Below are positions 2,482 through 39,895 of a stretch of DNA of 64,000 bases, one piece after another (within the stretch, counting starts at the first letter, position 1; each line of letters starts with the position of its first letter). The notes under the pieces are model-generated. The model worked only from the letters and a program-made list of their open reading frames with translations. It was not told the DNA's origin and made no database searches. The stretch lies in the IMG/VR virus record IMGVR_UViG_3300047375_000738. One strand, 5' to 3'. Made by a program: the position numbers and the translations under genes. Origin of the DNA: a virus. Taxonomy: Duplodnaviria; Caudoviricetes.

Positions 2482-4907
2482 GCCATTGCGTCTCCGGCTT
2501 GAAACCCAAACCAAGATGTGCCATTGAATGTAGTAAACACATAAATGTCCAGTTCTCCATTATTTGGCACGTCAGGCTGAACGCCACCAGACCATAATAC
2601 ACTAGACGGCCAAGTAATGCTAAAAGTTGGATTACTTGAGCTCCTATTTAGATATAATGTAAAAGACTCAACTCCAGATGCATATCCTTGAAATACGAAA
2701 GTTGTACTGCCGACTAATGTTATAGAAAAATGATTTGCACTACTAGTATCTAGAAGCTTTGTTGATTGCACTGCGCCTTCGCTGCTAAAAAATTCAGTTA
2801 CATTAGACTTTAAATTAATACTGCCTCCACCGTTTGCAGTAATATCAATATCGCCATTAGTTGTTGAGGTAGTAAGACTATAAGTTTGCATGTCAAGATT
2901 ACCGCCTAATTGTGGCGATGTATCGTCAACAACATCGCCGCTGCCGCCATCTGTAATTCCATATCCGGCAAGTGTTGTTGGTGTTCCTGTTAGATCAGAA
3001 AATGCAACACTTGTAAGATAGTTACTATCGTTTGTCCACTGGCTAATGTTACCACTTTTATTTATTAATGTATCAGTTGAACTTGGTGTAAATATAATGT
3101 CACTTGTTAATGCAAAGGTTCCTGGTGTTCCACCTGGTATACTATGAGTATTAATTGTGCCTAAACTTGTAATATCATATGTTTGTGCGTCAAGGTTACC
3201 ACCTAATTGTGGAGTAATGTCAGCAGCTACACTAGCGATTCCTTTTGTTGTCCAAATATAATCGCCGGTGTTACTGTTTAAAGTTGGATCCCAACCTAAA
3301 ACGTCACCTGAGCCTGCAGTACTAGTATTTAAATGCGCATCTACACTTGCATCTGCATATCCTCCTCCACCGCCGCCGGAAATATCAGAAAGTAAGGCAT
3401 AGGTACCTCCGCTACCTGTAGGAAGAGTGTGTCCGTTTAGACTACCAGTAATTGTAACACCATCGTTGCTGGTTGCTAATCGTTCATTATTGTCGTAGTA
3501 TAATGTACTTGCTGAACTTTTAAACTGAGCAAATTTACTTCCGCCTGAAGATTGGACAATAGTTGTAGAGGATATAATTTTTGTTGTACCAGAGCCGTCG
3601 CCAGCTCCTGTATCTTTTATAATACTATCAGTGCCATCATGAAATATTTCAAAATCTGCCGATGCACCTAGTGCTAGTTTGCCATTATCAGCAAAGGTAA
3701 TACTACTGCCATTTGCAACAGGTGTTGTGATAAATCCTGCATCATTGGTTAGATCGCTATTATTAAGTCCTGATATGCTTGTAATGTAACCGCTATCATT
3801 GGTTAACTGGCTTATATTTTCGCCATTTATACTAGTAAGATAGCTGCTCAAGTCAGGTGGTGTATATTGAAATTGTCCATTAGTGTTGTCATAAGATACA
3901 CTGCCCGATCCACTTGCGGTTGCACTAGCAATAAAACTTAAACTGTTTAATTGTATGTAACCTGGGTTACTAAAATTAACAGTAATGTTACCTTCTATAT
4001 CACTAGTTGTTGATATAGAAGTTCCGCCTTTGATGCTAAATGTTTCACCTCGAGAAATACTAATGCTAGTAGAATCGTCTGCTGTAATGTTAAAAACATT
4101 ATCTTCAATACGACTAAACCTATCAATAACTGTAGTTGCAAAATTTGGATCGTCTCCTAATGCTGCTGCTAGTTCATTTAACGTATTTAATGCACCAGGA
4201 GCACTATCAATTACATTAGCAATAGCACTATCGATATTTGCTTGATTAACTCCGTCAGTGATACCAAATCCTGCTAAAGTTGTGGGCTTGCTTGTTAAAT
4301 CGGCAAAAGCCACACTAGTTAAATAACTACTTAGATCGGGCGGAGTGTAATCAAATTCGCCAGTAGTGTTGTCGTAGGATAACGCTGCTGTTCCTACTGC
4401 ATTTGTTGTTACACTAATCTCTGTTAAATTAATATAGTTAGCATCATTTGTAAATGCACTTACATCCGTAGGAACTCCTGTGAGACTACTGAATGCAAAA
4501 TCTTGTGTAAAACCATTTGTGATTGTTATACTATCGGTTGCAGAATCTGTTGAGATAGAGATGTTTGTTCCAGCTACTAAAGTGATTGTATCTGTTTTAC
4601 TATCTGCATCAATATTTGTTTGCCCAGAAACTGCAAAGGTACTAAAAGCATTTTGATTTATCTCGCCGCTTGCTTGAGTAGCTGCAAGTTGATCCCATCC
4701 TACACTAGTATACCCTTCAAATAAATTAAGTGTATTATTATATCTTAAAGAACCTAAAGTAGGAGAACTATCACGCTCTGCTGTACTACCAATTGGAATT
4801 TGTACAGAACCACTTACACTTGTGCGAGGTGCAATAGCATCAAAATTATCATCCATTTCTGTATAGGTTAACGCCGAACCTTTAGTAGAACGTTTTGTTA
4901 CAGCCAT
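2478..4907 (-). CDS. Tail fibre protein
   Basis: APGALNTLNELAAALGDDPNFATT fibre motif; internal repeats TND(A/S)xY/F x4, PQLGGNLD x2, PTTLAG(F/Y)GITDG x2, YTPPDLSSYLTS x2; Gly/Ser/Thr-rich. Confidence 0.75.
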   Translation of the reverse strand: MAVTKRSTKGSALTYTEMDDNFDAIAPRTSVSGSVQIPIGSTAERDSSPTLGSLRYNNTLNLFEGYTSVGWDQLAATQASGEINQNAFSTFAVSGQTNIDADSKTDTITLVAGTNISISTDSATDSITITNGFTQDFAFSSLTGVPTDVSAFTNDANYINLTEISVTTNAVGTAALSYDNTTGEFDYTPPDLSSYLTSVAFADLTSKPTTLAGFGITDGVNQANIDSAIANVIDSAPGALNTLNELAAALGDDPNFATTVIDRFSRIEDNVFNITADDSTSISISRGETFSIKGGTSISTTSDIEGNITVNFSNPGYIQLNSLSFIASATASGSGSVSYDNTNGQFQYTPPDLSSYLTSINGENISQLTNDSGYITSISGLNNSDLTNDAGFITTPVANGSSITFADNGKLALGASADFEIFHDGTDSIIKDTGAGDGSGTTKIISSTTIVQSSGGSKFAQFKSSASTLYYDNNERLATSNDGVTITGSLNGHTLPTGSGGTYALLSDISGGGGGGYADASVDAHLNTSTAGSGDVLGWDPTLNSNTGDYIWTTKGIASVAADITPQLGGNLDAQTYDITSLGTINTHSIPGGTPGTFALTSDIIFTPSSTDTLINKSGNISQWTNDSNYLTSVAFSDLTGTPTTLAGYGITDGGSGDVVDDTSPQLGGNLDMQTYSLTTSTTNGDIDITANGGGSINLKSNVTEFFSSEGAVQSTKLLDTSSANHFSITLVGSTTFVFQGYASGVESFTLYLNRSSSNPTFSITWPSSVLWSGGVQPDVPNNGELDIYVFTTFNGTSWFGFQAGDAMA

Positions 4908-6478: not shown

Positions 6479-6729
6479 TATAAAGTATACCCTGTTCCGT
6501 TATATCCAGTATCTTCTAAGTATTTTACAAATTCATCATAGCCGCCAACTGCTTTGCCACCGACTGTAATTTGAGGAAATGTTCTAGCATTTGGAAATAC
6601 TTCAAAAACTTGTTCTCTAGTAAAGTCTACGTCTAATTGTTTGTAGGTGTACTCGTACTGCCGTGTTTCGCATAGGCTTTTTGCCCTGTTGCAAAACACA
6701 CAATTCTCTTTACCCCATACCTCAATCAT
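6478..6729 (-). CDS. nrdC: Glutaredoxin (T4 NrdC-like)
   Basis: CVFC active site, TFPQI cis-Pro loop, GGY; adjacent to nrdB. Confidence 0.85.
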   Translation of the reverse strand: MIEVWGKENCVFCNRAKSLCETRQYEYTYKQLDVDFTREQVFEVFPNARTFPQITVGGKAVGGYDEFVKYLEDTGYNGTGYTL

Positions 6730-18857: not shown

Positions 18858-18919
18858 TGTTCTGTTTCCTTATTTGTATTTAGTTATACCGATTAATAAA
18901 TATTGTTATAAGTGAGGGC

Positions 18920-19687
18920 TTGAAAATGATAACAGAAATGACATTCCATGAGCGTAGTCTCTTATTTGCTAACTTAGCTAGTATAGCATATAACGACGAC
19001 ATAGAGCAAGTAAAAAAACTTGTACGTAAACTTGGTTTTACCACAGTAGAATTTTATAACAAAGACGGAGCACAGGCATACCGTTTTATGAACAAGAAAG
19101 ATTTAGTTATTGCTTGTCGCGGAACACAACCAAGTGAGTTCAACGATATCAAAGCAGACTTGAAAGCAATGCCTGTTGTTGCTGAAACTGTAAGCAGAGT
19201 ACACAGAGGTTTCAAAGCAGAAGTAGATGAACTATGGCCTATGATATCTGAAGACCTAGCACGTAAAACTAATCGAGACAAGGACGTTTGGTTCTGTGGA
19301 CATAGTTTAGGTGCTGCTATGACAACTATTATGGCTAGTAGATGCAACTGCGATGTTGACATGCCTGATATACAGGAAGTGTACACATACGGTTCGCCAA
19401 GAGTAGGATGGCGTGGTTACTGTCGTAGTTTAGATGTAGCACACCATCGTTGGGTAAACAACAATGATATTGTTACTAGAGTACCACTAAGAGCTATGGG
19501 CTACATACATCACGGCACAGAACATTATATGAATGCACACGGGCTAGAGCGTAAGCTCACACCTTGGCAGCGTACTAAAGATCGTTGCAGAGGTATGTGG
19601 ATGGGCTTAAAGCAAGGTGGCGTCGATAGTTTCAGTGATCATTCAATGACAAACTATATTGCTAACTTGAAAAAAATGCAGGGCTAA
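18920..19687 (+). CDS. Class 3 lipase (alpha/beta hydrolase)
   Basis: IACRGT, VHRGF, CGHSLGAA nucleophile elbow, TYGSPRVG, DIVTRVP, C-terminal DHSM. Confidence 0.88.
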   Translation: MKMITEMTFHERSLLFANLASIAYNDDIEQVKKLVRKLGFTTVEFYNKDGAQAYRFMNKKDLVIACRGTQPSEFNDIKADLKAMPVVAETVSRVHRGFKAEVDELWPMISEDLARKTNRDKDVWFCGHSLGAAMTTIMASRCNCDVDMPDIQEVYTYGSPRVGWRGYCRSLDVAHHRWVNNNDIVTRVPLRAMGYIHHGTEHYMNAHGLERKLTPWQRTKDRCRGMWMGLKQGGVDSFSDHSMTNYIANLKKMQG

Positions 19688-32077: not shown

Positions 32078-32174
32078 AGGTTAACTTGACGATGTAAGCT
32101 ATTGATCTTTAAGCGAATATTCACTTTTGAGAACTTGACTTGCTTGACAAAGGCTCAGCACTAAGTGTATAGTA

Positions 32175-32749
32175 TAAGCAGTTGATTTTATTATCCTTTT
32201 TCCTCCACTATAGTCTACTACTATACTATACACACTTATAGTATATACTTCAACCTCTTAGTATACTATACTATATACTATAGCAACTTCGTCTGCTAAG
32301 TCTTTGTTTTTGTTGACAAAATCAAATCCTCTTTTAAATCAATAGGTTAGCTAGTGTTGTTCCGAGGGGCCATGTGCTGTGTGTAAGTGTTTGAGGCCAT
32401 TAGAGAAATACTACACTGTAAGTCATTGAGATCATTGGATAATGTGAGGGGCGCCGCTAGGAGTGTGTGCAGCTTAGAGACCCCGCGAGAGAATGGTTTA
32501 ATATTAAACTATATTTTCTAACTAGTTTAGTATTAAACTATCTCGAGGCAGGTAGTTTAACATTAAACCATTTTGGCGAGAAGGTTTAGTATTAAACCAT
32601 TTTGAGACCAGGAGATAGTTTAACGTTAAACCATAGGTTCAGAGCTCCGTGCCCTCCCGTACGGTACATTCTTTCCCGGCCTCACATATAATATAACATG
32701 ACTCCTAGAGGTTTGCAACCAGAAAGAATCTAATAAAATCAATAGGTTA
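32175..32749. promoter_or_regulatory. Three IHF consensus sites
   Basis: WATCAANNNNTTR at 32175-32187 (-), 32337-32349 (+), 32737-32749 (+); the last two are identical AATCAATAGGTTA. Confidence 0.6.
32496..32631. repeat. Array of five 14-bp palindromes GTTTA-N4-TAAAC
   Basis: Starts 32496, 32525, 32555, 32584, 32618. Confidence 0.9.
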
Positions 32750-32840
32750 TAAAATAAATTTATTTTATTTTTTTGGTTGACAACGTTGTATACATGTGCT
32801 ATATTATATGTATAAGTTAACAAGCATAGAGGGAAATATT

Positions 32841-33128
32841 ATGCTACACTATACACAAAATGACAAATTTGTATTTTTTAACGCTGTTGACGCACAAGTG
32901 CAGCTAACAGTAGAAGACGCTGTTGTTGGCGCTGCTGACAGTGTAGACGCACTTGTTGAGCTGCTGCTACGTGCAGACGTTCGTGCAACAGACAGAATTA
33001 TGTTTAGCAGCGACATGGACTTTGCTAGTGAAGAAGGCTTTGCTACAGATTCCGCTGCACATGAGCTGCTAGAAGCTGCACTTGAAACAAGTGGCTTGAC
33101 TGCACAAGCAGACGACTTGCTAGTATAG
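32841..33128 (+). CDS. Early hypothetical protein
   Basis: Start moved to MLHYTQ after GAGGGA RBS. Confidence 0.7.
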   Translation: MLHYTQNDKFVFFNAVDAQVQLTVEDAVVGAADSVDALVELLLRADVRATDRIMFSSDMDFASEEGFATDSAAHELLEAALETSGLTAQADDLLV

Positions 33129-33199
33129 CAAAAAAAAGACTTGACACTATAGCGCACTTGTGCTATAGTGTTAGTATAAACAAACATAGAGGGCAATCA

Positions 33200-33544
33200 A
33201 TGTTTTACATTTACGAAAAATCAAGTACTTATATTATGGGATACAAAAACGGCAAAGTTCGTCCGGATCACCGCAAGAGCTATAAGACTATGGCTAGTGC
33301 TAGAGCAGCATTAACCAAGTGGAGCCATCAGTGGTGGCGTGAAGAAGGTATCAACGGCGACAGTGCAAACAACAATCCTCACTTCCGTTATGGCATCGCA
33401 AGGGCCAACTACTTCCACGACACTATTGAGAAGAAGCGTACAGTGTACAGCATCTTTGATGAGGCTAAGGAAAACCCAATCACTGAGACTGTGAACACTC
33501 CAGGTTACATGTCGCCCAGCAGAGAATCTTATTGGAGCATGTAA
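33200..33544 (+). CDS. Early hypothetical protein
   Basis: Start MFYIYEK after GAGGGC RBS. Confidence 0.7.
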   Translation: MFYIYEKSSTYIMGYKNGKVRPDHRKSYKTMASARAALTKWSHQWWREEGINGDSANNNPHFRYGIARANYFHDTIEKKRTVYSIFDEAKENPITETVNTPGYMSPSRESYWSM

Positions 33545-33616
33545 AAAAGAGGTTGACACAGCCGCAAGGCTGTGTTATATTAATTGTATAGAAACGCTAA
33601 ACGGAGGGCATCCACA

Positions 33617-34093
33617 ATGGCAACTAGAGCTCGTATCGGAATCGAAAACGCAGACGGTTCAATCTTAACTTCATATCATCACTGGGACGGTTACCCAGCA
33701 GGCTTGGGTTTCAACCTAGTCAACAACTGGGCAGACGAAGATTTGCTTGGTGCCGCTATTCAGTTAGGTGACGCATCGCATTGGGCAGACACTATTGGTA
33801 GCAAGACAGACTTTGACTGCCGTGACGATAACTATTACGCACAGAATGTCTACTACGGACGTGACCGTGGCGAAACAGATGTAGGTCCTAAGGCTTATGC
33901 TTCCTATGAAGTGTTTGAAAAGTGCTTCCAGCGCAACACACCCTGTGGTGAAGAGTATGCTTATGTCTTGCGCTTAGACGGTACATGGACACAGATTGCA
34001 GTGTATACCAAAGAAGTCTTGCATGATGCGGAGGATTCAATCCGCACTGCCAAGGCTCGTATGCAACGCATGATTGATCAGGAGGTAGTGTAA
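33617..34093 (+). CDS. Early protein of a widespread phage family (Y-x-H-x-DGYP)
   Basis: MATRARIG...SYHHWDGYPAGLG; GAGGGC RBS. Confidence 0.7.
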   Translation: MATRARIGIENADGSILTSYHHWDGYPAGLGFNLVNNWADEDLLGAAIQLGDASHWADTIGSKTDFDCRDDNYYAQNVYYGRDRGETDVGPKAYASYEVFEKCFQRNTPCGEEYAYVLRLDGTWTQIAVYTKEVLHDAEDSIRTAKARMQRMIDQEVV

Positions 34094-34617
34094 TGCCTAA
34101 CTGGTGCAACAACACAATCACAATCACTGGCGATTACGATACACTCGTCCAACTGAAACCTGTAGTAGAAGCAGGCGAAGGCTTGCTTCAAGCAATCGCA
34201 CCTATGCCTAAGGAACTAGAAGGCACTGTGGCTCCTAGTGATGAACCCAACTGGTATGACTGGTGTCACGAGAACTGGGGCACCAAGTGGGATCCAGAGC
34301 TGAACCTAGAGTTCATCGACAATGGTGATGGCACTGCTACTATCACAGGATTCTTTGAAACTGCATGGGCTCCACCTATTGCGGCAATGCACACCTTGTC
34401 ACAAGACTGGGACTCGTGCTACATTGAACTCTTCTATGAAGAAGGCGGTATGTGCTTCGTAGGCTGTTGGGATAGTGAAGGTGGCGATGACTACTACGAC
34501 TATTCAGAAGCTGACAGCAAGACCATCACCGACATCGTTCCCAAGTACCTAGTAGAGGAGTTCGCACTAGACGAACGGTTAGCTGAGTATGAAGAAGAGG
34601 AGTTGCAGGATGCTTGA
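34093..34617 (+). CDS. DUF1281/YubB ferredoxin-like domain protein
   Basis: MPNWCNN, WYDWCHENWGTKWD, FETAWAPP. Confidence 0.75.
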   Translation: MPNWCNNTITITGDYDTLVQLKPVVEAGEGLLQAIAPMPKELEGTVAPSDEPNWYDWCHENWGTKWDPELNLEFIDNGDGTATITGFFETAWAPPIAAMHTLSQDWDSCYIELFYEEGGMCFVGCWDSEGGDDYYDYSEADSKTITDIVPKYLVEEFALDERLAEYEEEELQDA

Positions 34618-34753
34618 TGCTCTACTAGACGATATCGAAGCTGTGCTCAAGAAGTATAGCGGAAGCGATTGGGAGATTATGGATGTTGACTTCAGCGATG
34701 GCGGAGCAGTGTTCACAGTGAGTGCAGGCCTTAAGGAGGAAGAGGATGTATAA
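34610..34753 (+). CDS. 47-aa acidic early protein
   Basis: MLDALLDDIEAVLKKY...; overlaps upstream stop; not in ORF track. Confidence 0.55.
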   Translation: MLDALLDDIEAVLKKYSGSDWEIMDVDFSDGGAVFTVSAGLKEEEDV

Positions 34754-34868
34754 GGTAAAGGATGCCTCAGGCGAAATAGTTGCTATCTGTAGTCGACTAG
34801 AAGATGCAGAAGCTATGTGCCAAACTGTTGGAAAACAAATTCGTAGATTTATTGAAAAAGTAGGTTGA
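34746..34868 (+). CDS. 40-aa early protein
   Basis: MYKVKDASGEIVAICSRLEDAEAM...; stop TGA lies inside the next -35 box. Confidence 0.55.
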   Translation: MYKVKDASGEIVAICSRLEDAEAMCQTVGKQIRRFIEKVG

Positions 34869-34931
34869 CAACTAGTGTGCCCTATGCTATATTATATGTA
34901 TAGGGCAACACAGTAAGAGGGAACTTACAAA

Positions 34932-35129
34932 ATGGCAGACATTTGCATTTTTAACTCAGCATACCGTGACAGCGAAAAGCGTTGGATCTCAGTAGACGAT
35001 GTGCGTGTAGTAACAATGAAAATGGACTACGACAACCGTCCTTACATGCTGTTTGAGCACACAGACTTTCCACTAGGCGGATTACGTGCAGACTTCAAAG
35101 ACGGCAACTGGTACTGTGATTTAGATTAA
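34932..35129 (+). CDS. Early hypothetical protein
   Basis: Own promoter, GAGGGA RBS. Confidence 0.7.
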   Translation: MADICIFNSAYRDSEKRWISVDDVRVVTMKMDYDNRPYMLFEHTDFPLGGLRADFKDGNWYCDLD

Positions 35130-35142
35130 TAGGAGATAGAAT

Positions 35143-35388
35143 ATGAAACTTAATGCAAGAGAACTTCAGAAGCTAATGGGTCTTCTACGCAATGTAGCAG
35201 AAGTTGATCCAGAAGATGTGATCTCCAACTGTGCATCGCAGCTGGCGTATGAACTTGAAACTGTTAAGGTGCCATTCGACACCAACACAATGAACGAGAA
35301 GCGCCAAGAGCTTGTTCGTTATGCTATCGGAAAAAGAAACAAATATCGGTTGACACCCGGCGCTCGTCATGCTATAGTAGTAGAGTAA
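35143..35388 (+). CDS. Early hypothetical protein
   Basis: AGGAG RBS. Confidence 0.65.
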   Translation: MKLNARELQKLMGLLRNVAEVDPEDVISNCASQLAYELETVKVPFDTNTMNEKRQELVRYAIGKRNKYRLTPGARHAIVVE

Positions 35389-35407
35389 TAAGGGCAAAGA
35401 GGGTAAT

Positions 35408-35536
35408 ATGGAAATCGATTATTTTGAAGACGATGTAGAAGAGCGCAGCTGGATCGCTGCAATGCTTATCAATGCAACCAGCTTCGCAATGAACTTGACA
35501 CTCGTTGTAGGCTTAACATATTGGATGGTAGGATGA
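35408..35536 (+). CDS. 42-aa early membrane peptide
   Basis: MEIDYFEDDVEERSWIAAMLINATSFAMNLTLVVGLTYWMVG; GAGGGT RBS; not in ORF track. Confidence 0.6.
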   Translation: MEIDYFEDDVEERSWIAAMLINATSFAMNLTLVVGLTYWMVG

Positions 35537-35742
35537 ACGACTTATTTGAAATCGTAGAAGACCTTAAGGACATTGACACCTTTGGTAGCGATACCACAGC
35601 GTTCGAAGACATCCTTGTGAAGTGGCAAGCTCGTTTGGTAGAAGCTGAACATGAAGCGGATCGTCAATATGAAATGTTTGCAGGAGTCGCTAAGATACTT
35701 GACAAACGTTATGAAACATTTGAAATGGATGACGGAGCATAG
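35533..35742 (+). CDS. Early acidic hypothetical protein
   Basis: ATGA overlap; MNDLFEIVEDL. Confidence 0.6.
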   Translation: MNDLFEIVEDLKDIDTFGSDTTAFEDILVKWQARLVEAEHEADRQYEMFAGVAKILDKRYETFEMDDGA

Positions 35743-35750
35743 ATAGAACT

Positions 35751-35834
35751 GCTCGCATGGTGGAATGGTAGACACTACAGACTTAAAATCTGTTGCCGCA
35801 AGGCGTCCCGGTTCGAATCCGGGTGCGAGTACCA
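35751..35834 (+). tRNA. trnL: tRNA-Leu (anticodon UAA)
   Basis: Acceptor GCTCGCA/TGCGAGT-ACCA; anticodon arm ACAGA-CTTAAAA-TCTGT; long variable arm; GGTTCGAATCC. Confidence 0.95.
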
Positions 35835-35846
35835 AATACTTCTGCT

Positions 35847-35923
35847 GGTCTCTTAGCTCAGCTGGATAGAGCAAGTGCCTTCTAAGCACTAGGTCGCAGG
35901 TTCGAATCCTGCAGAGATCGCCA
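35847..35923 (+). tRNA. trnR: tRNA-Arg (anticodon UCU)
   Basis: Acceptor GGTCTCT/AGAGATC-GCCA; AGTGC-CTTCTAA-GCACT; GGTTCGAATCC. Confidence 0.95.
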
Positions 35924-36007
35924 AAAGTATTTGAACAAAGAGGTTGACAATGTGCTGCTCTCATGCTATATTATATGTATAGGGCAAACAGACAAGGGCT
36001 AAAGATT

Positions 36008-36325
36008 ATGAAATTTGTTATCTCAACACAGTACTTAGAAAACTATGGCGCACACTGTGAGGACGGTAAGTTCTCCAGCGGTAATGCATACTGGAAGATG
36101 AAGGGCGGCACTGATTACATCGTGTCCGACTTAGAGCGTGTTCAGGATGCGATTGCATTCGTAATGGCCAAGTTCGGCACTAATGATATCTCCCAGAAGG
36201 AGTATCCAGTAGCGTTCCGCAGCTATGATGAGTGGGAGACAGAGTTGGACAAGGAGAGCGTTGAATATGCTGACTTCATTAGGTCAACAGCCAAAGATGT
36301 GTCACCACTAGAGGAGGCGATATAA
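36008..36325 (+). CDS. Early hypothetical protein
   Basis: Start MKFVISTQYLENYGAH after its own promoter. Confidence 0.7.
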   Translation: MKFVISTQYLENYGAHCEDGKFSSGNAYWKMKGGTDYIVSDLERVQDAIAFVMAKFGTNDISQKEYPVAFRSYDEWETELDKESVEYADFIRSTAKDVSPLEEAI

Positions 36326-36486
36326 TGTTTGAAGGTTCAGTTGAAATCCTAATTGCGTTCGTCGCTGTACTTGCTGCGGTAGGTGTAGTCACTATGATTA
36401 TCCGTGCTATGAACGTTCCTGTAGTAGCAGCAGCAACCATTGGCGTTCTAGGTTGGATGCTTTTCTTTTATCAATTATCACAATAA
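36325..36486 (+). CDS. 53-aa early two-helix membrane peptide
   Basis: MFEGSVEILIAFVAVLAAVGVV...; TAATG coupling; not in ORF track. Confidence 0.55.
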   Translation: MFEGSVEILIAFVAVLAAVGVVTMIIRAMNVPVVAAATIGVLGWMLFFYQLSQ

Positions 36487-36549
36487 GGGGTTGACAAGCG
36501 AATGACTATGTCGTATAGTATACGTAACAAAACAACTTATGAGGGTAAG

Positions 36550-37551
36550 ATGAACGTTAGATTCAACAGTGGCTATTTTAGCTTTAAGGGTAGAAACATC
36601 GAAGTGGCAGATAAAGTACTTCCATTATCACAAGGATTCAAGATAGGTGTTCGCGGCGGCTACGTAACAGTAGACGGTAGTGCAGTGTCTGGTTATCCAG
36701 ATCGCAATATCAAAGTCTATGTAGACAGTGAGCAAGACTTCGTTGAAGTTGATGACTCCGTAGCCGTCGCTGCTCCTGAAGACGAGAGTGATGCTGCAAT
36801 TGTAGAACGCTTGCGCAAACGTTTTAACATGCTAGGCGACATGACTAAGGCAGTCAAGAAGGGTGATGTACGTGCAATGATCGTAAGTGGCCCTCCAGGT
36901 GTAGGCAAGTCGCATGGTGTTGAAGAAGTACTAGACCGCTACAAGACTCTAGAAGCCTTAGGAGGTACACGCAAGTATGAAGTGATCAAAGGTGCTATGT
37001 CACCTATTGGATTGTACTGCAAGCTCTATGGCATGGCAGACAAAGGTAACGTTGTGGTATTTGATGACTGTGACAGCATCTTCCAAGACGATCTAAGCCT
37101 TAACATTCTAAAAGCTGCACTAGACAGCAAGGGTCGTAGAATGATCCATTGGAACACTGATTCATTCAAGCTGCGCAACGAAGGTGTGCCAGACTCGTTT
37201 GAGTTTAAAGCATCTGCTATCTTTATTACCAACATGAAGTTTGACAAAGTCAAAGGCAAGCTAAAGGAGCACCTAGAAGCACTAGAGTCACGTTGCCACT
37301 ATATGGACCTTACAATTGACACAGACCGTGACAAGATGCTGCGTATCAAGCAGGTTGTGATGGACGGTATGCTCAATGCATACAAGCTAGATCAAGAGAT
37401 CAAGGACGAGATCGTAGACTTCGTTGATATTAATAAGAACCGACTACGTGAGCTGTCATTGCGTACAGTGCTCAAGGTAGCGGATCTAGCAGTGGCATTC
37501 CCAGACGATTGGGAAGCCTTTGCAGAGAATACGGTGATGCGTCGAGCATAG
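36550..37551 (+). CDS. AAA+-type P-loop ATPase
   Basis: Walker A SGPPGVGKS, Walker B VVVFDDCD, sensor FITN, ALESRC Arg finger; start moved to MNVRFN. Confidence 0.8.
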   Translation: MNVRFNSGYFSFKGRNIEVADKVLPLSQGFKIGVRGGYVTVDGSAVSGYPDRNIKVYVDSEQDFVEVDDSVAVAAPEDESDAAIVERLRKRFNMLGDMTKAVKKGDVRAMIVSGPPGVGKSHGVEEVLDRYKTLEALGGTRKYEVIKGAMSPIGLYCKLYGMADKGNVVVFDDCDSIFQDDLSLNILKAALDSKGRRMIHWNTDSFKLRNEGVPDSFEFKASAIFITNMKFDKVKGKLKEHLEALESRCHYMDLTIDTDRDKMLRIKQVVMDGMLNAYKLDQEIKDEIVDFVDINKNRLRELSLRTVLKVADLAVAFPDDWEAFAENTVMRRA

Positions 37552-37572
37552 AGCTCCGCACATCGTACAAAC

Positions 37573-37686
37573 GCTGCTAAAGGTGCCCTCCCTTAGCAGC
37601 ACATAGGAAGCAATGCAATGCCCTCACGCTGCGCTTCCAACCATGTAGCAGCAGGACCGCCCTCATCCTGCTGCTACAATTCTTTT
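37573..37686 (+). ncRNA. Candidate three-hairpin sRNA with GCCCUC loops (cuckoo-like architecture)
   Basis: Stems 37573-37600, 37606-37638 (imperfect), 37644-37678 (13 bp); GCCCTC in every loop; T-rich tail. Confidence 0.7.
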
Positions 37687-37757
37687 AAAATAGTGGTTGA
37701 CAACTGAGTATTCTCATGCTATATTATATGTATAGTTAGACACAACGGAGGGCTCCA

Positions 37758-38036
37758 ATGGCATACTACACTCACACAAAGGATCCAGTTGGTGCATTCC
37801 AAGAGAAGGACACTGGCAACTGGTTTGAATGGAGCATCAACAACGATGTGCTCAATAACATCAACGAAGACTTTCCACACAAGGTTTGGACTGGTGGTGC
37901 AGGCGTGTGTGGCGATCAAGGATATCGTTATGCTCACGTGATGAAGACTCGTGTGGTAGTGTGTGTAGACGAAGACGAGTTTGGTCTTCCTGTAGTAGAG
38001 AAATGGTATACCAAGAAACATAATATTTATGGTTGA
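37758..38036 (+). CDS. Early hypothetical protein
   Basis: GAGGGC RBS; stop inside next -35 box. Confidence 0.7.
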   Translation: MAYYTHTKDPVGAFQEKDTGNWFEWSINNDVLNNINEDFPHKVWTGGAGVCGDQGYRYAHVMKTRVVVCVDEDEFGLPVVEKWYTKKHNIYG

Positions 38037-38091
38037 CAACTAGTACAACCTGTCGTATACTATTAATATAAACAGACATTAGGAGGGCTCC

Positions 38092-38310
38092 ATGTCAACA
38101 GAATTAAAAAGCAACACCAAAGATGTAAGCCTTACACGCTTCTGGGGAGGAGAACTTAAAGTTCAAGTCACTACACCTCGTGCTGCCAACTTAGGTCCGC
38201 TGACTACAGCAGACAAGTTCTTCCAAAGCATACAGCTCAGCAAAGACGAAGCTAGGTCATTAGCACTAGACTTGTTCCGCTTCGCAGAAGATCAATCGGA
38301 GGAATTGTAA
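38092..38310 (+). CDS. Early hypothetical protein
   Basis: GAGGGC RBS; LTRFWGG motif. Confidence 0.7.
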   Translation: MSTELKSNTKDVSLTRFWGGELKVQVTTPRAANLGPLTTADKFFQSIQLSKDEARSLALDLFRFAEDQSEEL

Positions 38311-38438
38311 TGACTCGCAAGGAATGGGTAGGCGAACTGTTTGGTTACGCTGTTATCGCAATATTCGCATTTGGATGGATTGACTTTGGACAAGGACCTA
38401 GTCTTACTTGGTGGAATTTAATTCAATTTTTTGGTTGA
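38310..38438 (+). CDS. 42-aa early membrane peptide
   Basis: MTRKEWVGELFGYAVIAIFAFGWIDF...; TAATG coupling; stop inside -35 box. Confidence 0.55.
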   Translation: MTRKEWVGELFGYAVIAIFAFGWIDFGQGPSLTWWNLIQFFG

Positions 38439-38498
38439 CAGCATACCAATCCTGTCGTATAATATTAGTATAAACAAAACAATGTAGAGGGCATTTAC

Positions 38499-38768
38499 AT
38501 GAAACGCAATTTAAGAACAGCATACAATCAATTGAACAAGATTGGTTGTCCAACTATTGAAGGTGGATACTACGGCGAAGACAGCTTTCGCATCAGTGCA
38601 GAGAGTGGTGATGAGCACCACACATGGGCTGACTACTATATGATGACAGACGGTGATTGCACTGGCTACATCATGGGCGTAAGCAACCGTATCAATGATA
38701 TACTGGATCCACTGGGCTTGTATGCCGAATGGATCAATCCAGGTGTCCTAGCAGTGTGTGAGGCCTAA
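38499..38768 (+). CDS. Early hypothetical protein
   Basis: GAGGGC RBS; EWINPG motif. Confidence 0.7.
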   Translation: MKRNLRTAYNQLNKIGCPTIEGGYYGEDSFRISAESGDEHHTWADYYMMTDGDCTGYIMGVSNRINDILDPLGLYAEWINPGVLAVCEA

Positions 38769-38769
38769 T

Positions 38770-39042
38770 ATGAAAAACCTCAACAACTATATAAACGAAA
38801 ACTTGATGTTCGGTGGCTTTTATGGCACCAACATCACCTTTCCACTTAGCCAGAAGAGTGTGGACACTATTGCACGTAGACTGGACAGAGATTTGTCACC
38901 TGAGAACCTACACTGTGATGGAGAGATAAGCCACGCTGAAGCAGAGCGCAAGTATCAGTTCTATGGTCGGGTGATCCGCGAGCTTGAGAACTATTGTCTC
39001 AACAACTGGTTGAACTCTCCTGTGGTAGAAGAATATTATTAA
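38770..39042 (+). CDS. Early hypothetical protein
   Basis: Start MKNLNNY; LSPENLHCDGE motif. Confidence 0.65.
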   Translation: MKNLNNYINENLMFGGFYGTNITFPLSQKSVDTIARRLDRDLSPENLHCDGEISHAEAERKYQFYGRVIRELENYCLNNWLNSPVVEEYY

Positions 39043-39117
39043 TTAAATGGTTGACAGTATACGGTAGATGTCGTATACTGTTACTATAAGTTAAACATTG
39101 TAAGAGGGCAAAACACA

Positions 39118-39540
39118 ATGGCATATGTATCACAAGCAGACAAAAAATCATTAGCACCAGCTATCAAGGCAGTGCTCAACAAGTATGGTATGAAAGGTTC
39201 AATCCGTGTGCGCAATCATTCAACACTGTGTGTAACAGTTAAGAGTGGTGGCATTGACTTCTCAGACTACATGCGTGGAGAAGCCTACATTGATGTCAAC
39301 GAGTATTGGATCGATCAACACTATTCAGGCATTGCTCGCAACTTCCTAAACGAACTATTGGACGCAATGAAAGGTCCTAACTACTTCAACAATGATGATG
39401 CGATGACAGACTACTTCCACCGCAGCCACTACACTGATATCACTATTGGTACAGCGTGGAACAAGCCTTACACCTACATGCCCAACAGCATTCCAAACGA
39501 ACTAAAGGTGGATGCAACTAAGGCAGCCTACATAGTATAA
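39118..39540 (+). CDS. Early hypothetical protein
   Basis: GAGGGC RBS; NNDDAMTDYF motif. Confidence 0.7.
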   Translation: MAYVSQADKKSLAPAIKAVLNKYGMKGSIRVRNHSTLCVTVKSGGIDFSDYMRGEAYIDVNEYWIDQHYSGIARNFLNELLDAMKGPNYFNNDDAMTDYFHRSHYTDITIGTAWNKPYTYMPNSIPNELKVDATKAAYIV

Positions 39541-39610
39541 GAGGTTGACAGTATACGGCATGTGTCGTATACTGTATGTATATTAACAAACAAGATATGA
39601 GGGTATCACA

Positions 39611-39895
39611 ATGACTATGATTAATACAGTACTAGATCAAATCCAACGCATGGACAACGACGAACTCAATAGAGTTATTGCAGCAGTCAAGAGTCAGCGA
39701 ACATACATTGCTCGCAACATGACACGCAAGCTGAGGGTAGGTGATGTAGTCACCTTTGAAGGCAGAGGTGGTGCGACTGTTACTGGTAGTGTGCGCAAGA
39801 TCAATCCTAAGACTGTGCTAGTAAAGGACAGGGCTAGTGCTACTACATGGAAGGTTACAGCTACGCTTCTAACACCATTGCACGTAGGAGAATAG
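39611..39895 (+). CDS. Early protein, SH3/KOW-like C-terminus
   Basis: LRVGDVVTF...GSVRKINPKTVLV; GAGGGT RBS. Confidence 0.65.
   Translation: MTMINTVLDQIQRMDNDELNRVIAAVKSQRTYIARNMTRKLRVGDVVTFEGRGGATVTGSVRKINPKTVLVKDRASATTWKVTATLLTPLHVGE

Follow-up and report, generated by a model that had tools for sequence, protein, structure and literature searches.

Loops of a hairpin array behind an early ATPase gene of a marine phage complement a private ribosome-site tag on its early genes

Why would a phage carry, directly behind one of its early genes, three hairpins that all display the same six loop bases, and these the complement of the ribosome sites of its early genes? The question is raised by a 64,000-nt stretch of viral DNA (IMG/VR record IMGVR_UViG_3300047375_000738, Caudoviricetes; hereafter the window), in which the array at 37573-37686 on the plus strand forms an AAA ATPase gene's 3' untranslated region (3'UTR). 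Its loops hold GCCCUC (GCCCTC in the DNA), and the promoter-proximal early genes use GAGGGC or a near variant of it, a private 'tag', as their Shine-Dalgarno (SD) sequence. In relatives of the window loops and tags have changed together, and from this we conclude that the array very probably serves base-pairing that controls early protein synthesis. Our fuller reading, which we consider likely on the strength of sequence comparisons, is that the 3'UTR of the early ATPase mRNA is a multi-hairpin regulatory RNA whose loops read the private SD tag in trans, likely repressing the genes that bear it.

The array is highly structured. The three hairpins described in an earlier note on this DNA, with GCCCTC in every loop, are borne out (Table 1), and the 151-nt array stretch folds with a minimum free energy (MFE) of -51.5 kcal/mol against -34.7 +/- 3.4 for its dinucleotide shuffles (z = -5.0), with none of 200 shuffles folding as well. 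Within 37573-37678 (+) the GCCCUC motif is present in all three loops and is 74-98% unpaired in the ensemble. Hairpin 3, whose loop is CCGCCCTCA (CCGCCCUCA in the RNA module listing), is the intrinsic terminator of the ATPase transcript: its 13-bp stem is G+C-rich and is followed by TTCTTTT, a U-rich tail that reads UUCUUUU in the RNA and has 7-9 U in relatives. The array begins 22 nt past the ATPase stop codon (37549-37551) and is closed by hairpin 3 and this tail. We found no promoter-like site on the plus strand between 36519 and 37697, so that the array is without a promoter of its own. In layout it fits a 3'UTR-derived small RNA (sRNA), being bounded by the stop codon and the intrinsic terminator of a single mRNA.

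The other partner in the proposed pairing is found in the early leaders. Thirteen plus-strand promoters, from 32144 to 39573, match TTGACA-N17-TATAnT at 11-12 of 12 positions, and 12 of them precede a gene. The SD of these 12 promoter-proximal genes is GAGGG(C/U/A) in 11 cases and AAGGGC in one, at 9-15 nt 5' of the ATG; every position given in the earlier note holds, and the extra AGGGCA that it saw in three leaders without GAGGGC is present near 34902, 35391 and 35981. One tagged gene is the ATPase gene itself, the true start of which is ATG 36550 rather than ATG 36502, because the latter falls within the gene's own promoter. Genes outside the early island, and island genes that are not promoter-proximal, are served by AGGAG, GGAG, AAGGA or GGAGG, so the claim that other genes mostly use GGAG or AGGAG (outside the island: AGGAG, GGAG or AAGGA) was sound. 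GAGGG is not used before non-early genes, the only other GAGGGC-ATG combination in the window being that of gene 18926.

This restriction is mirrored in predicted pairing energies. For duplexes of the three loops with translation start regions the mean is -15.7 kcal/mol among the 12 early genes, as against -8.9 among 46 others (Mann-Whitney p = 2e-6), and shuffled loops attained the observed mean in one of 500 trials. Gene 18926-19687 (+), which is esterase/lipase-like and lies outside the island, gives a predicted duplex of -18.7 kcal/mol with loop 2 and may be an additional target (Table 1); upstream of it is a TAAATA motif rather than a sigma70 promoter. The strongest predicted loop duplex of all (-20.2 kcal/mol) belongs to an internal early gene starting at 38770, which has GUGUGAGGCC before its ATG (38745-38772) and is not promoter-proximal.

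The leaders themselves can fold. In the 12 leaders of the window (32812-39625) the tag is mostly found within the loop of a small hairpin or next to it, and about five of the stems include the AUG. For 265 related leaders, hairpins with the SD in the loop were found in 24% as opposed to 11% with shuffled flanks, a modest enrichment, and the AUG was paired in 63% as opposed to 43%; the mean MFE of these folds was no lower than that of shuffles. Leader hairpins with the SD in the loop and the AUG in the stem are weakly supported by these figures.

How general is the correspondence between loop and leader? The comparison used 80 loci of the ATPase from IMG/VR and a further 80 from metagenome contigs; roughly 250 and 470 other ATPase relatives were found as well and left out. 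Group 1, made up of the window, L001-3, L005-7 and the marine loci L084-L163 (ATPase 62-99% identical), has 64 distinct 3'UTRs, from marine loci whose ATPases are 72-99% identical, with 218 GCCCUC motifs, two to five per UTR, and all 218 are on the sense strand. The stems around these loops differ freely, and several modules recur: GGUGCCCUCCC, (U)GCCCUCACGCU, GGA-CCGCCCUCA-UCC, UAGU-GUGCCCUC-GCUA and GGAU-GUGCCCUC-GUCC; the second of these is held in the apical region of hairpin 2 of the window. A tag of the (G/A)AGGGC(A) type is carried by 262 of 291 distinct promoter-proximal leaders of this group (GAGGGC 168, AAGGGC 41, GAGGGU 33, GAGGGA 20), GGAGG occurring in 30 and AGGAG in 23. GCCCUC loops are thus kept in the relatives that have GAGGGC leaders, as the earlier note had anticipated. 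The ATPase stop codon is straddled by a further small hairpin (Table 1), which can be extended to GCG..CGC, is kept in marine group-1 relatives and carries a further GCCCUCA in its loop in many of them; terminating ribosomes would open it.

Group 2 consists of most of L008-L080, freshwater contigs of jumbo-phage relatives, up to 356 kb long, with ATPases that are 60-67% identical. At the same position these have two hairpins, each with the loop GAUUCGCUCCC, the second hairpin being the terminator. The loop is invariant in about 44 distinct sequences, and the stems are nearly unrelated in sequence yet complementary. Group-2 early leaders carry A-GGAGCGAA-(A/C), of which UUCGCUCC of the loop is the exact 8-nt complement. 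In IMG/VR at least 94 contigs have two exact GATTCGCTCCC motifs at a distance of 34-64 nt, where chance would give about none; among the 80 of these that were fetched, 74 have an ATPase C-terminus no more than 400 nt upstream on the same strand, and three are too short there to tell. The 356-kb genome behind L056 (96% complete) has GGAGCGAA 14 times in sense, as against one match per strand for a control pattern read backwards, and eight of the 14 lie within about 8 kb of the ATPase, across contig ends. The loop 11-mer occurs only three times in that genome, twice in the ATPase 3'UTR. From these distributions the tag appears to be an address and not the general ribosome site of the phage. A metatranscriptome contig of run X29, a variant placed at 37559 of the window, matches the 3' end of the ATPase gene and then continues into a different 3'UTR containing CGCUCC, from which it follows that a marine relative with a group-2-type loop co-occurs with the window phage.

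Two group-2-type loci have a second array. At 5432-5824 of L181 and 8900-9325 of L223 (minus strand), three GAUUCGCUCCC hairpins form the 3'UTR of a gene for a 91-aa winged-helix (wHTH) protein (PF14090, PHROG 4973), whose own leader has AGAGGA and is without the GGAGCGAA tag. This array cannot act on the SD of its own gene, which argues for action in trans. L223 has one loop motif after its ATPase gene and 14 sense copies of GGAGCGA in 12 kb.

In group 3 (L029-31, 35, 38, 40, 55, 63, 66, 68, 72 and 73) the arrangement is simpler: GG-UAGCUCCU-GG stands single-stranded directly past the stop codon and is followed by a hairpin and then by the terminator, and the ATPase gene's leader reads A-AGGAGCUA-GA. 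L031 has longer versions of the two partners, AGGAGCUAUA and UAUAGCUCCU, so that the match grows on both sides, to 10 bp.

Among the loci compared, none mixes the loop class of one group with the leader class of another. In position logos anchored on the core alone (AGGG/CCCU or GGAGC/GCUCC), the unanchored neighbours agree between the leader and the reverse-complemented loop. Group 1 has G, C and A at these places and group 2 has G, A and A; if the C, U and A of group 3 are added, nine non-core positions match, an agreement that independent positions would reach with a chance of about 4e-6. A quick tree of 119 ATPase sequences shows four changes of motif class where three would be the minimum, a pattern that looks like a few coordinated switches, each touching several loops and many leaders. 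The earlier note had called the array a phage variant of the alphaproteobacterial cuckoo/CcsR sRNAs that co-evolved with a private ribosome-binding site (RBS) code; the switching of loop and leader motifs together strongly supports the co-evolution, and the family membership did not survive, as set out below.

The placement of the motifs in hairpin loops was also examined without alignment, by folding every motif together with 28-nt flanks on both sides. Among 155 distinct group-1 units, 57% had the entire motif unpaired within a hairpin loop (5% with shuffled flanks), and among 89 group-2 units 55% did (4%). A stem scan with wide loop limits did not discriminate, since 88% of control sites had 4-bp 'stems', and tighter limits were then used. 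RNAalifold on loop-anchored MAFFT alignments recovered only the inner 3 bp of the group-2 terminator hairpin (hairpin 2), where CG to GC and CG to UA compensations are seen, and no part of hairpin 1; it recovers so little because the outer stems stand at different offsets and are not alignable. Further afield, the T4-like phages phiR1-RT and PEi26 have no loop/leader complement. PA5oct (L081, MK797984) has merely 43 nt after its ATPase gene, with a small hairpin there. A single 8-nt complement between the leader of this PA5oct ATPase homologue (GGAGUAGCAU, 2660-2697) and the 3' arm of that hairpin (AUGCUACU, 3850-3892) was not counted because it lies beside, not over, the SD and has a chance of about 2% by hand estimate; it could be a distant fourth variant or a coincidence.

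How might such an RNA work? Each loop would display (U)GCCCUC to the private tag GAGGGC(A) of the promoter-proximal, sigma70-driven early genes. The tag can be regarded as a 4-nt SD core (GAGG or GGAG) plus two to four private bases that the tail of the 16S rRNA would not read, and by virtue of these private bases the loops should hold early leaders (6-8 bp, up to 10) more tightly than the ribosome can. Messages with the generic GGAG or GAGG core alone should be largely spared. The RNA would be made within the ATPase transcript, end at its terminator and work either as a 3'UTR or as a processed 3' fragment, binding the ribosome sites of early mRNAs in trans, that of the ATPase mRNA included. 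Occlusion of 30S binding would be the most likely outcome, with early translation tuned down or shut off as the structured RNA accumulates; both the pairing in the cell and the repressive effect are what we infer from these features. Action at the level of RNA is argued by a motif that is on the sense strand, sits in the loops of compensating stems between stop codon and terminator, and complements the sole SD of the leader. The several loops per RNA, the dozen tagged leaders and the presence of an array behind an untagged gene favour action in trans. Repression as a negative-feedback 'timer', and host targets, both suggested by the earlier note, might follow from such pairing.

More tentatively, and leaning slightly against it ourselves, we entertain an extension of this reading to the whole lineage. 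The aquatic jumbo phages related to PA5oct and Atu_ph07 would then share a private ribosome-site code on the early genes transcribed by host RNA polymerase (GAGGGCA, GGAGCGAA or AGGAGCUA, by clade) and a clade-matched RNA with several loops, encoded in one or two early-gene 3'UTRs, that serves in trans as a global switch of early translation. On several occasions code and reader RNA would have been exchanged jointly, which would yield natural orthogonal SD/anti-SD pairs. On this reading the switch need not be a repressor, and could instead shield phage leaders against an SD-cutting nuclease or set phage messages apart from those of the host.

Several observations weigh against a trans-acting repressor. 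The expression data, which are assembled contigs of public runs and show neither ends nor strand, are divided. Four metatranscriptome runs cover the ATPase gene and the genes downstream and leave 37566-37740 empty, one contig of these runs stopping exactly at the ATPase stop codon. Four other RNA libraries, from four studies, do cover the array (37375-37735, 37493-37643, 37573-37723 and 37565-38014); their contigs have depths of 2-4.5 and may stem from DNA carry-over, and the last of them reads through the terminator. It is plausible that the array is transcribed together with the ATPase gene, and it may yield a discrete, stable RNA. Since the array shares the timing of the early promoters with its targets, a 'timer' would also need a 3' fragment that outlives the mRNAs, that is, differential stability. 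The motif classes are nearly monophyletic, and the co-variation therefore amounts to about three independent switches and not to hundreds of events. Finally, group-2 loops conserve 11 nt as against the 8 nt that pair with leaders (the surplus being GA on the 5' side and C on the 3' side), which may reflect some additional constraint, for instance a protein partner, and the tag of group 3 is found only on the ATPase gene's own leader, which fits cis or auto-regulation there.

This last pattern also speaks for the alternative that the array acts in cis only, folding back on the ATPase gene's own SD to affect translation or decay, with the other tags having some other cause. Each of the three groups has a matching tag on the gene's own leader; group 3 has it at the ATPase RBS alone and its complement in the ATPase 3'UTR alone, with the compensatory extension of L031; and icaR provides a precedent (PMC3868564). 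We nonetheless consider cis-only pairing unlikely: a single SD needs no two to five redundant loops, the private extension on about 90% of group-1 and group-2 early leaders would be left unexplained, and the second array stands behind a wHTH gene whose leader has no tag. The ATPase gene's own tagged leader and the group-3 pattern do indicate that self-pairing of the icaR type belongs to the picture, and it may be the ancestral state. Less probable again is that the loops are sites for an RNA-binding protein, such as a boxB/N-like antiterminator, a RegA-like repressor or a CsrB-like sponge, and that the complementarity is secondary. Hairpins that bind proteins typically keep their loops while their stems vary, the 11 conserved nucleotides of group 2 leave room for a protein partner, and antitermination control at the last hairpin, a terminator, is conceivable. 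A single protein would not, however, recognize a sequence and its complement, and the complementarity is exact in three separate clades at three non-core positions each, for which the chance given above applies.

In T4, genes e, soc, 49 and I-TevI have inhibitory hairpins that sequester the RBS on early read-through transcripts. An arrangement of this kind, with the loops masking the SD at 37748 on read-through transcripts only, so that the gene there is translated from its own promoter alone, would agree with the MFE fold of 37541-37760, which pairs GCCCUCC of hairpin 1 with GGAGGGC at 37746-37752, and with the one RNA-library contig that passes the terminator. We rate it below the protein-site alternative, given that the array follows one gene (rarely two) and does not stand between all early cassettes, that the gene downstream in group 3 has no tag, and that tags on leaders kilobases away would go unexplained. 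The T4 cases resemble ours in that phage early/late control is at issue and an upstream complementary RNA masks the SD; they differ in using a local cis hairpin for each regulated gene, whereas here one distal array faces many leaders. A DNA operator, with GAGGGC/GCCCTC bound in either orientation by a protein whose specificity differs by clade, would mimic the co-variation in both orientations through a specificity change of that one protein. The strict polarity of the motifs makes this more improbable still, as the tag is always in sense, 9-15 nt before the ATG and the sole SD there, and its complement is always in sense in the UTR (218 of 218), in hairpin loops with compensating stems, which are features of an RNA. 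The least probable explanation of all, and one effectively refuted by the comparisons, is chance, with ordinary terminator or stabilizer hairpins whose C-rich loops happen to resemble an anti-SD. Hairpin 3 does act as an intrinsic terminator, and C-rich loops occur commonly; yet hundreds of diverged copies keep the loops invariant, the exact double 11-mer occurs in at least 94 viral contigs with about none expected, and there are three clade-specific complement pairs.

If the trans-acting multi-hairpin RNA is thus our preferred reading, which known systems does it resemble? The closest architecture is that of the alphaproteobacterial cuckoo/CcsR sRNAs (RSs0680, alpha-r14), which have two to four adjacent hairpins with the same anti-SD-like loop motif on variable stems and are processed from a 3'UTR in Rhodobacter (PMC4615179, PMC8034643). 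Both have adjacent hairpins with one motif in every loop, highly variable stems and a terminator hairpin at the end. The cuckoo/CcsR loops are, however, CCUCCUCCC, as opposed to GCCCUC, UUCGCUCC or UAGCUCCU in the phages; they are found on the alphaproteobacterial chromosome by a DUF1127 gene, not behind an AAA ATPase gene; and only the phage loops match a private SD extension on a defined set of genes of their own genome, in a code that varies by clade. Rfam covariance models at the gathering score found no cuckoo/CcsR RNA in the window and 14 relatives, the only matches being tRNAs and a glutamine riboswitch in L007, and even at E <= 10 the segment 37300-37900 gave no match to these families, only spurious miRNA models. 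With the loop motif absent, neither a covariance-model match nor similarity in sequence, and a different genomic context, the array is not a member of the cuckoo/CcsR family as the earlier note had supposed. A 62%-identical relative, L004 (4039-4110), has C/U-rich sites, CCCUCUCCCUC after the stop codon and a loop ACCCUCCCACUCCCA; its leaders are ordinary (AGAGGA or AGGAGA), and it appears to be a generic, cuckoo-like anti-SD version without the private extension.

In the icaR mRNA of Staphylococcus aureus a C-rich anti-SD motif in the 3'UTR complements the SD of the same mRNA, as proved by compensatory mutations, the duplex is cleaved by RNase III, and its authors allow for both cis and trans pairing (PMC3868564); the 5'/3'-UTR interaction of hbs is a further such case (PMC5737220). 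In the phages, too, a 3'UTR motif complements the SD of its own mRNA (GAGGGU at 36541 and GCCCUC in the window, and likewise in groups 2 and 3), and icaR offers the closest parallel to group 3 and to the ATPase gene's own leader. Unlike icaR, the phage has several looped copies, about a dozen other tagged leaders and an array behind an untagged gene, and its pairing is predicted from natural co-variation between clades. The Firmicutes sRNAs RNAIII and RsaE/RoxS likewise direct several exposed C-rich loops, with UCCC motifs, against the G-rich ribosome sites of multiple targets (PMC4615179, PMC6158497). Those sites are the generic SDs of host regulons, whereas in the phage specificity would come from two to four non-SD bases. 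In layout, though not in its loops, the locus also has some likeness to the PeSL (promoter-early stem-loop) cassettes of T4-type phages, promoter-terminator modules described as driving gene shuffling (PMC2839356): hairpin 3 (ending at 37678) is followed by the promoter at 37697-37725, hence a terminator and then a sigma70-like early promoter, among small, non-essential early genes. The abstract of that paper mentions neither loops complementary to ribosome sites nor multi-hairpin arrays. A literature search found no paper in which a phage RNA corresponds to a private SD code on early genes; multi-loop anti-SD RNAs and 3'UTR anti-SD motifs are already known, and the matching of a phage RNA to such a code appears to be what is new.

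Were the pairing real, the virus would encode a genome-wide post-transcriptional switch for a whole temporal class of genes, made up of a brief SD extension of its own and the multi-loop RNA reading it. Among the known routes by which large lytic phages turn off their early genes are RegB cleavage of GGAG, RegA repression and changes of RNA polymerase, and RNA-RNA control would join these. Unusual 'ribosome sites' of phages can then be regulatory addresses and not mere variants. The natural code switches make the hypothesis directly testable, as the three pairs of code and reader are ready specificity controls, and they are potential orthogonal parts for translation control in synthetic biology.

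Table 1. Positions in the window of the hairpins, the ATPase gene, its neighbouring promoters and the tagged ribosome sites.
Feature	Position	Strand	Details
Possible extra target GUGAGGGC	18912-18919	+	before ATG 18926; 8-nt complement of loop 2 (GCCCUCAC)
Solitary fourth hairpin	32647-32664	+	GCCCUCCC loop, T-rich tail; at start of early island, downstream of orphan promoter 32144
SD tag GAGGGA	32829-32834	+	ATG 32841
SD tag GAGGGC	33189-33194	+	ATG 33200
SD tag GAGGGC	33604-33609	+	ATG 33617
SD tag GAGGGA	34917-34922	+	ATG 34932; extra AGGGCA upstream
Leader with AAGGGC plus GAGGGU	35390-35404	+	ATG 35408; GAGGGT at 35399
Tag AAGGGC	35994-35999	+	ATG 36008; extra AGGGCA nearby
ATPase early promoter, sigma70-type	36491-36519	+	TTGACA-17-TATAGT
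ATPase gene's own SD tag GAGGGU	36541-36546	+	could pair with GCCCUC loops, one pair being G-U
AAA ATPase gene	36550-37551	+	NrdC.10-like, PHROG 1250, function unknown; array is its 3'UTR
Small hairpin GAGC/GCUC	37544-37556	+	straddles ATPase stop codon
Hairpin 1	37573-37580 / 37593-37600	+	8-bp stem; loop AGGUGCCCUCCC; GCCCTC at 37585-37590
Hairpin 2	37606-37611 / 37633-37638	+	6-bp outer stem; GCCCTC at 37620-37625
Hairpin 3	37644-37656 / 37666-37678	+	13-bp stem; GCCCTC at 37659-37664; tail to 37686
Next early promoter, near-consensus sigma70	37697-37725	+	TTGACA-17-TATATT; directly past array
SD tag GAGGGC	37748-37753	+	ATG 37758
SD tag GAGGGC	38083-38088	+	ATG 38092
SD tag GAGGGC	38487-38492	+	ATG 38499
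SD tag GAGGGC	39104-39109	+	ATG 39118
SD tag GAGGGU	39599-39604	+	ATG 39611

As to the source of the window, a search of the INPHARED DNA collection gave no match to the locus. The stretch is found nearly word for word in seawater metagenomes of at least 13 studies, and a helicase that it encodes shares 51-55% identity with its counterparts in the jumbo phages Phosso, Atu_ph07 and PA5oct; from these matches and this kinship we take it to come from an abundant, uncultured marine phage of a jumbo-phage lineage. Relatives of the ATPase occur in T4-like and PA5oct-like phages.

The upstream edge of the early island has features of its own. The promoter at 32144-32173 is near-consensus for sigma70 and has no gene behind it. 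It is followed by repeats of the TATAGT/ACTATA type (32180-32290) and then by about 500 nt without a convincing open reading frame, up to the hairpin with the GCCCUCCC loop; the stretch from this promoter to the hairpin at 32647-32664 may therefore be a long non-coding transcript. Between the orphan promoter and the first early gene, in non-coding DNA at 32494-32633, an 18-bp palindrome (GTTTAAyrTTAAAC type) occurs five times at a spacing of about 30 nt, and the copies look like binding sites for a dimeric protein. Within the island are genes for tRNA-Leu(UAA) and tRNA-Arg(UCU) (35751-35923), and tRNAs also adjoin the ATPase region in relatives. The glutamine riboswitch of L007 (RF01739, 38.1 bits against a threshold of 35) lies at 6589-6639, in the early region of this group-1 relative.

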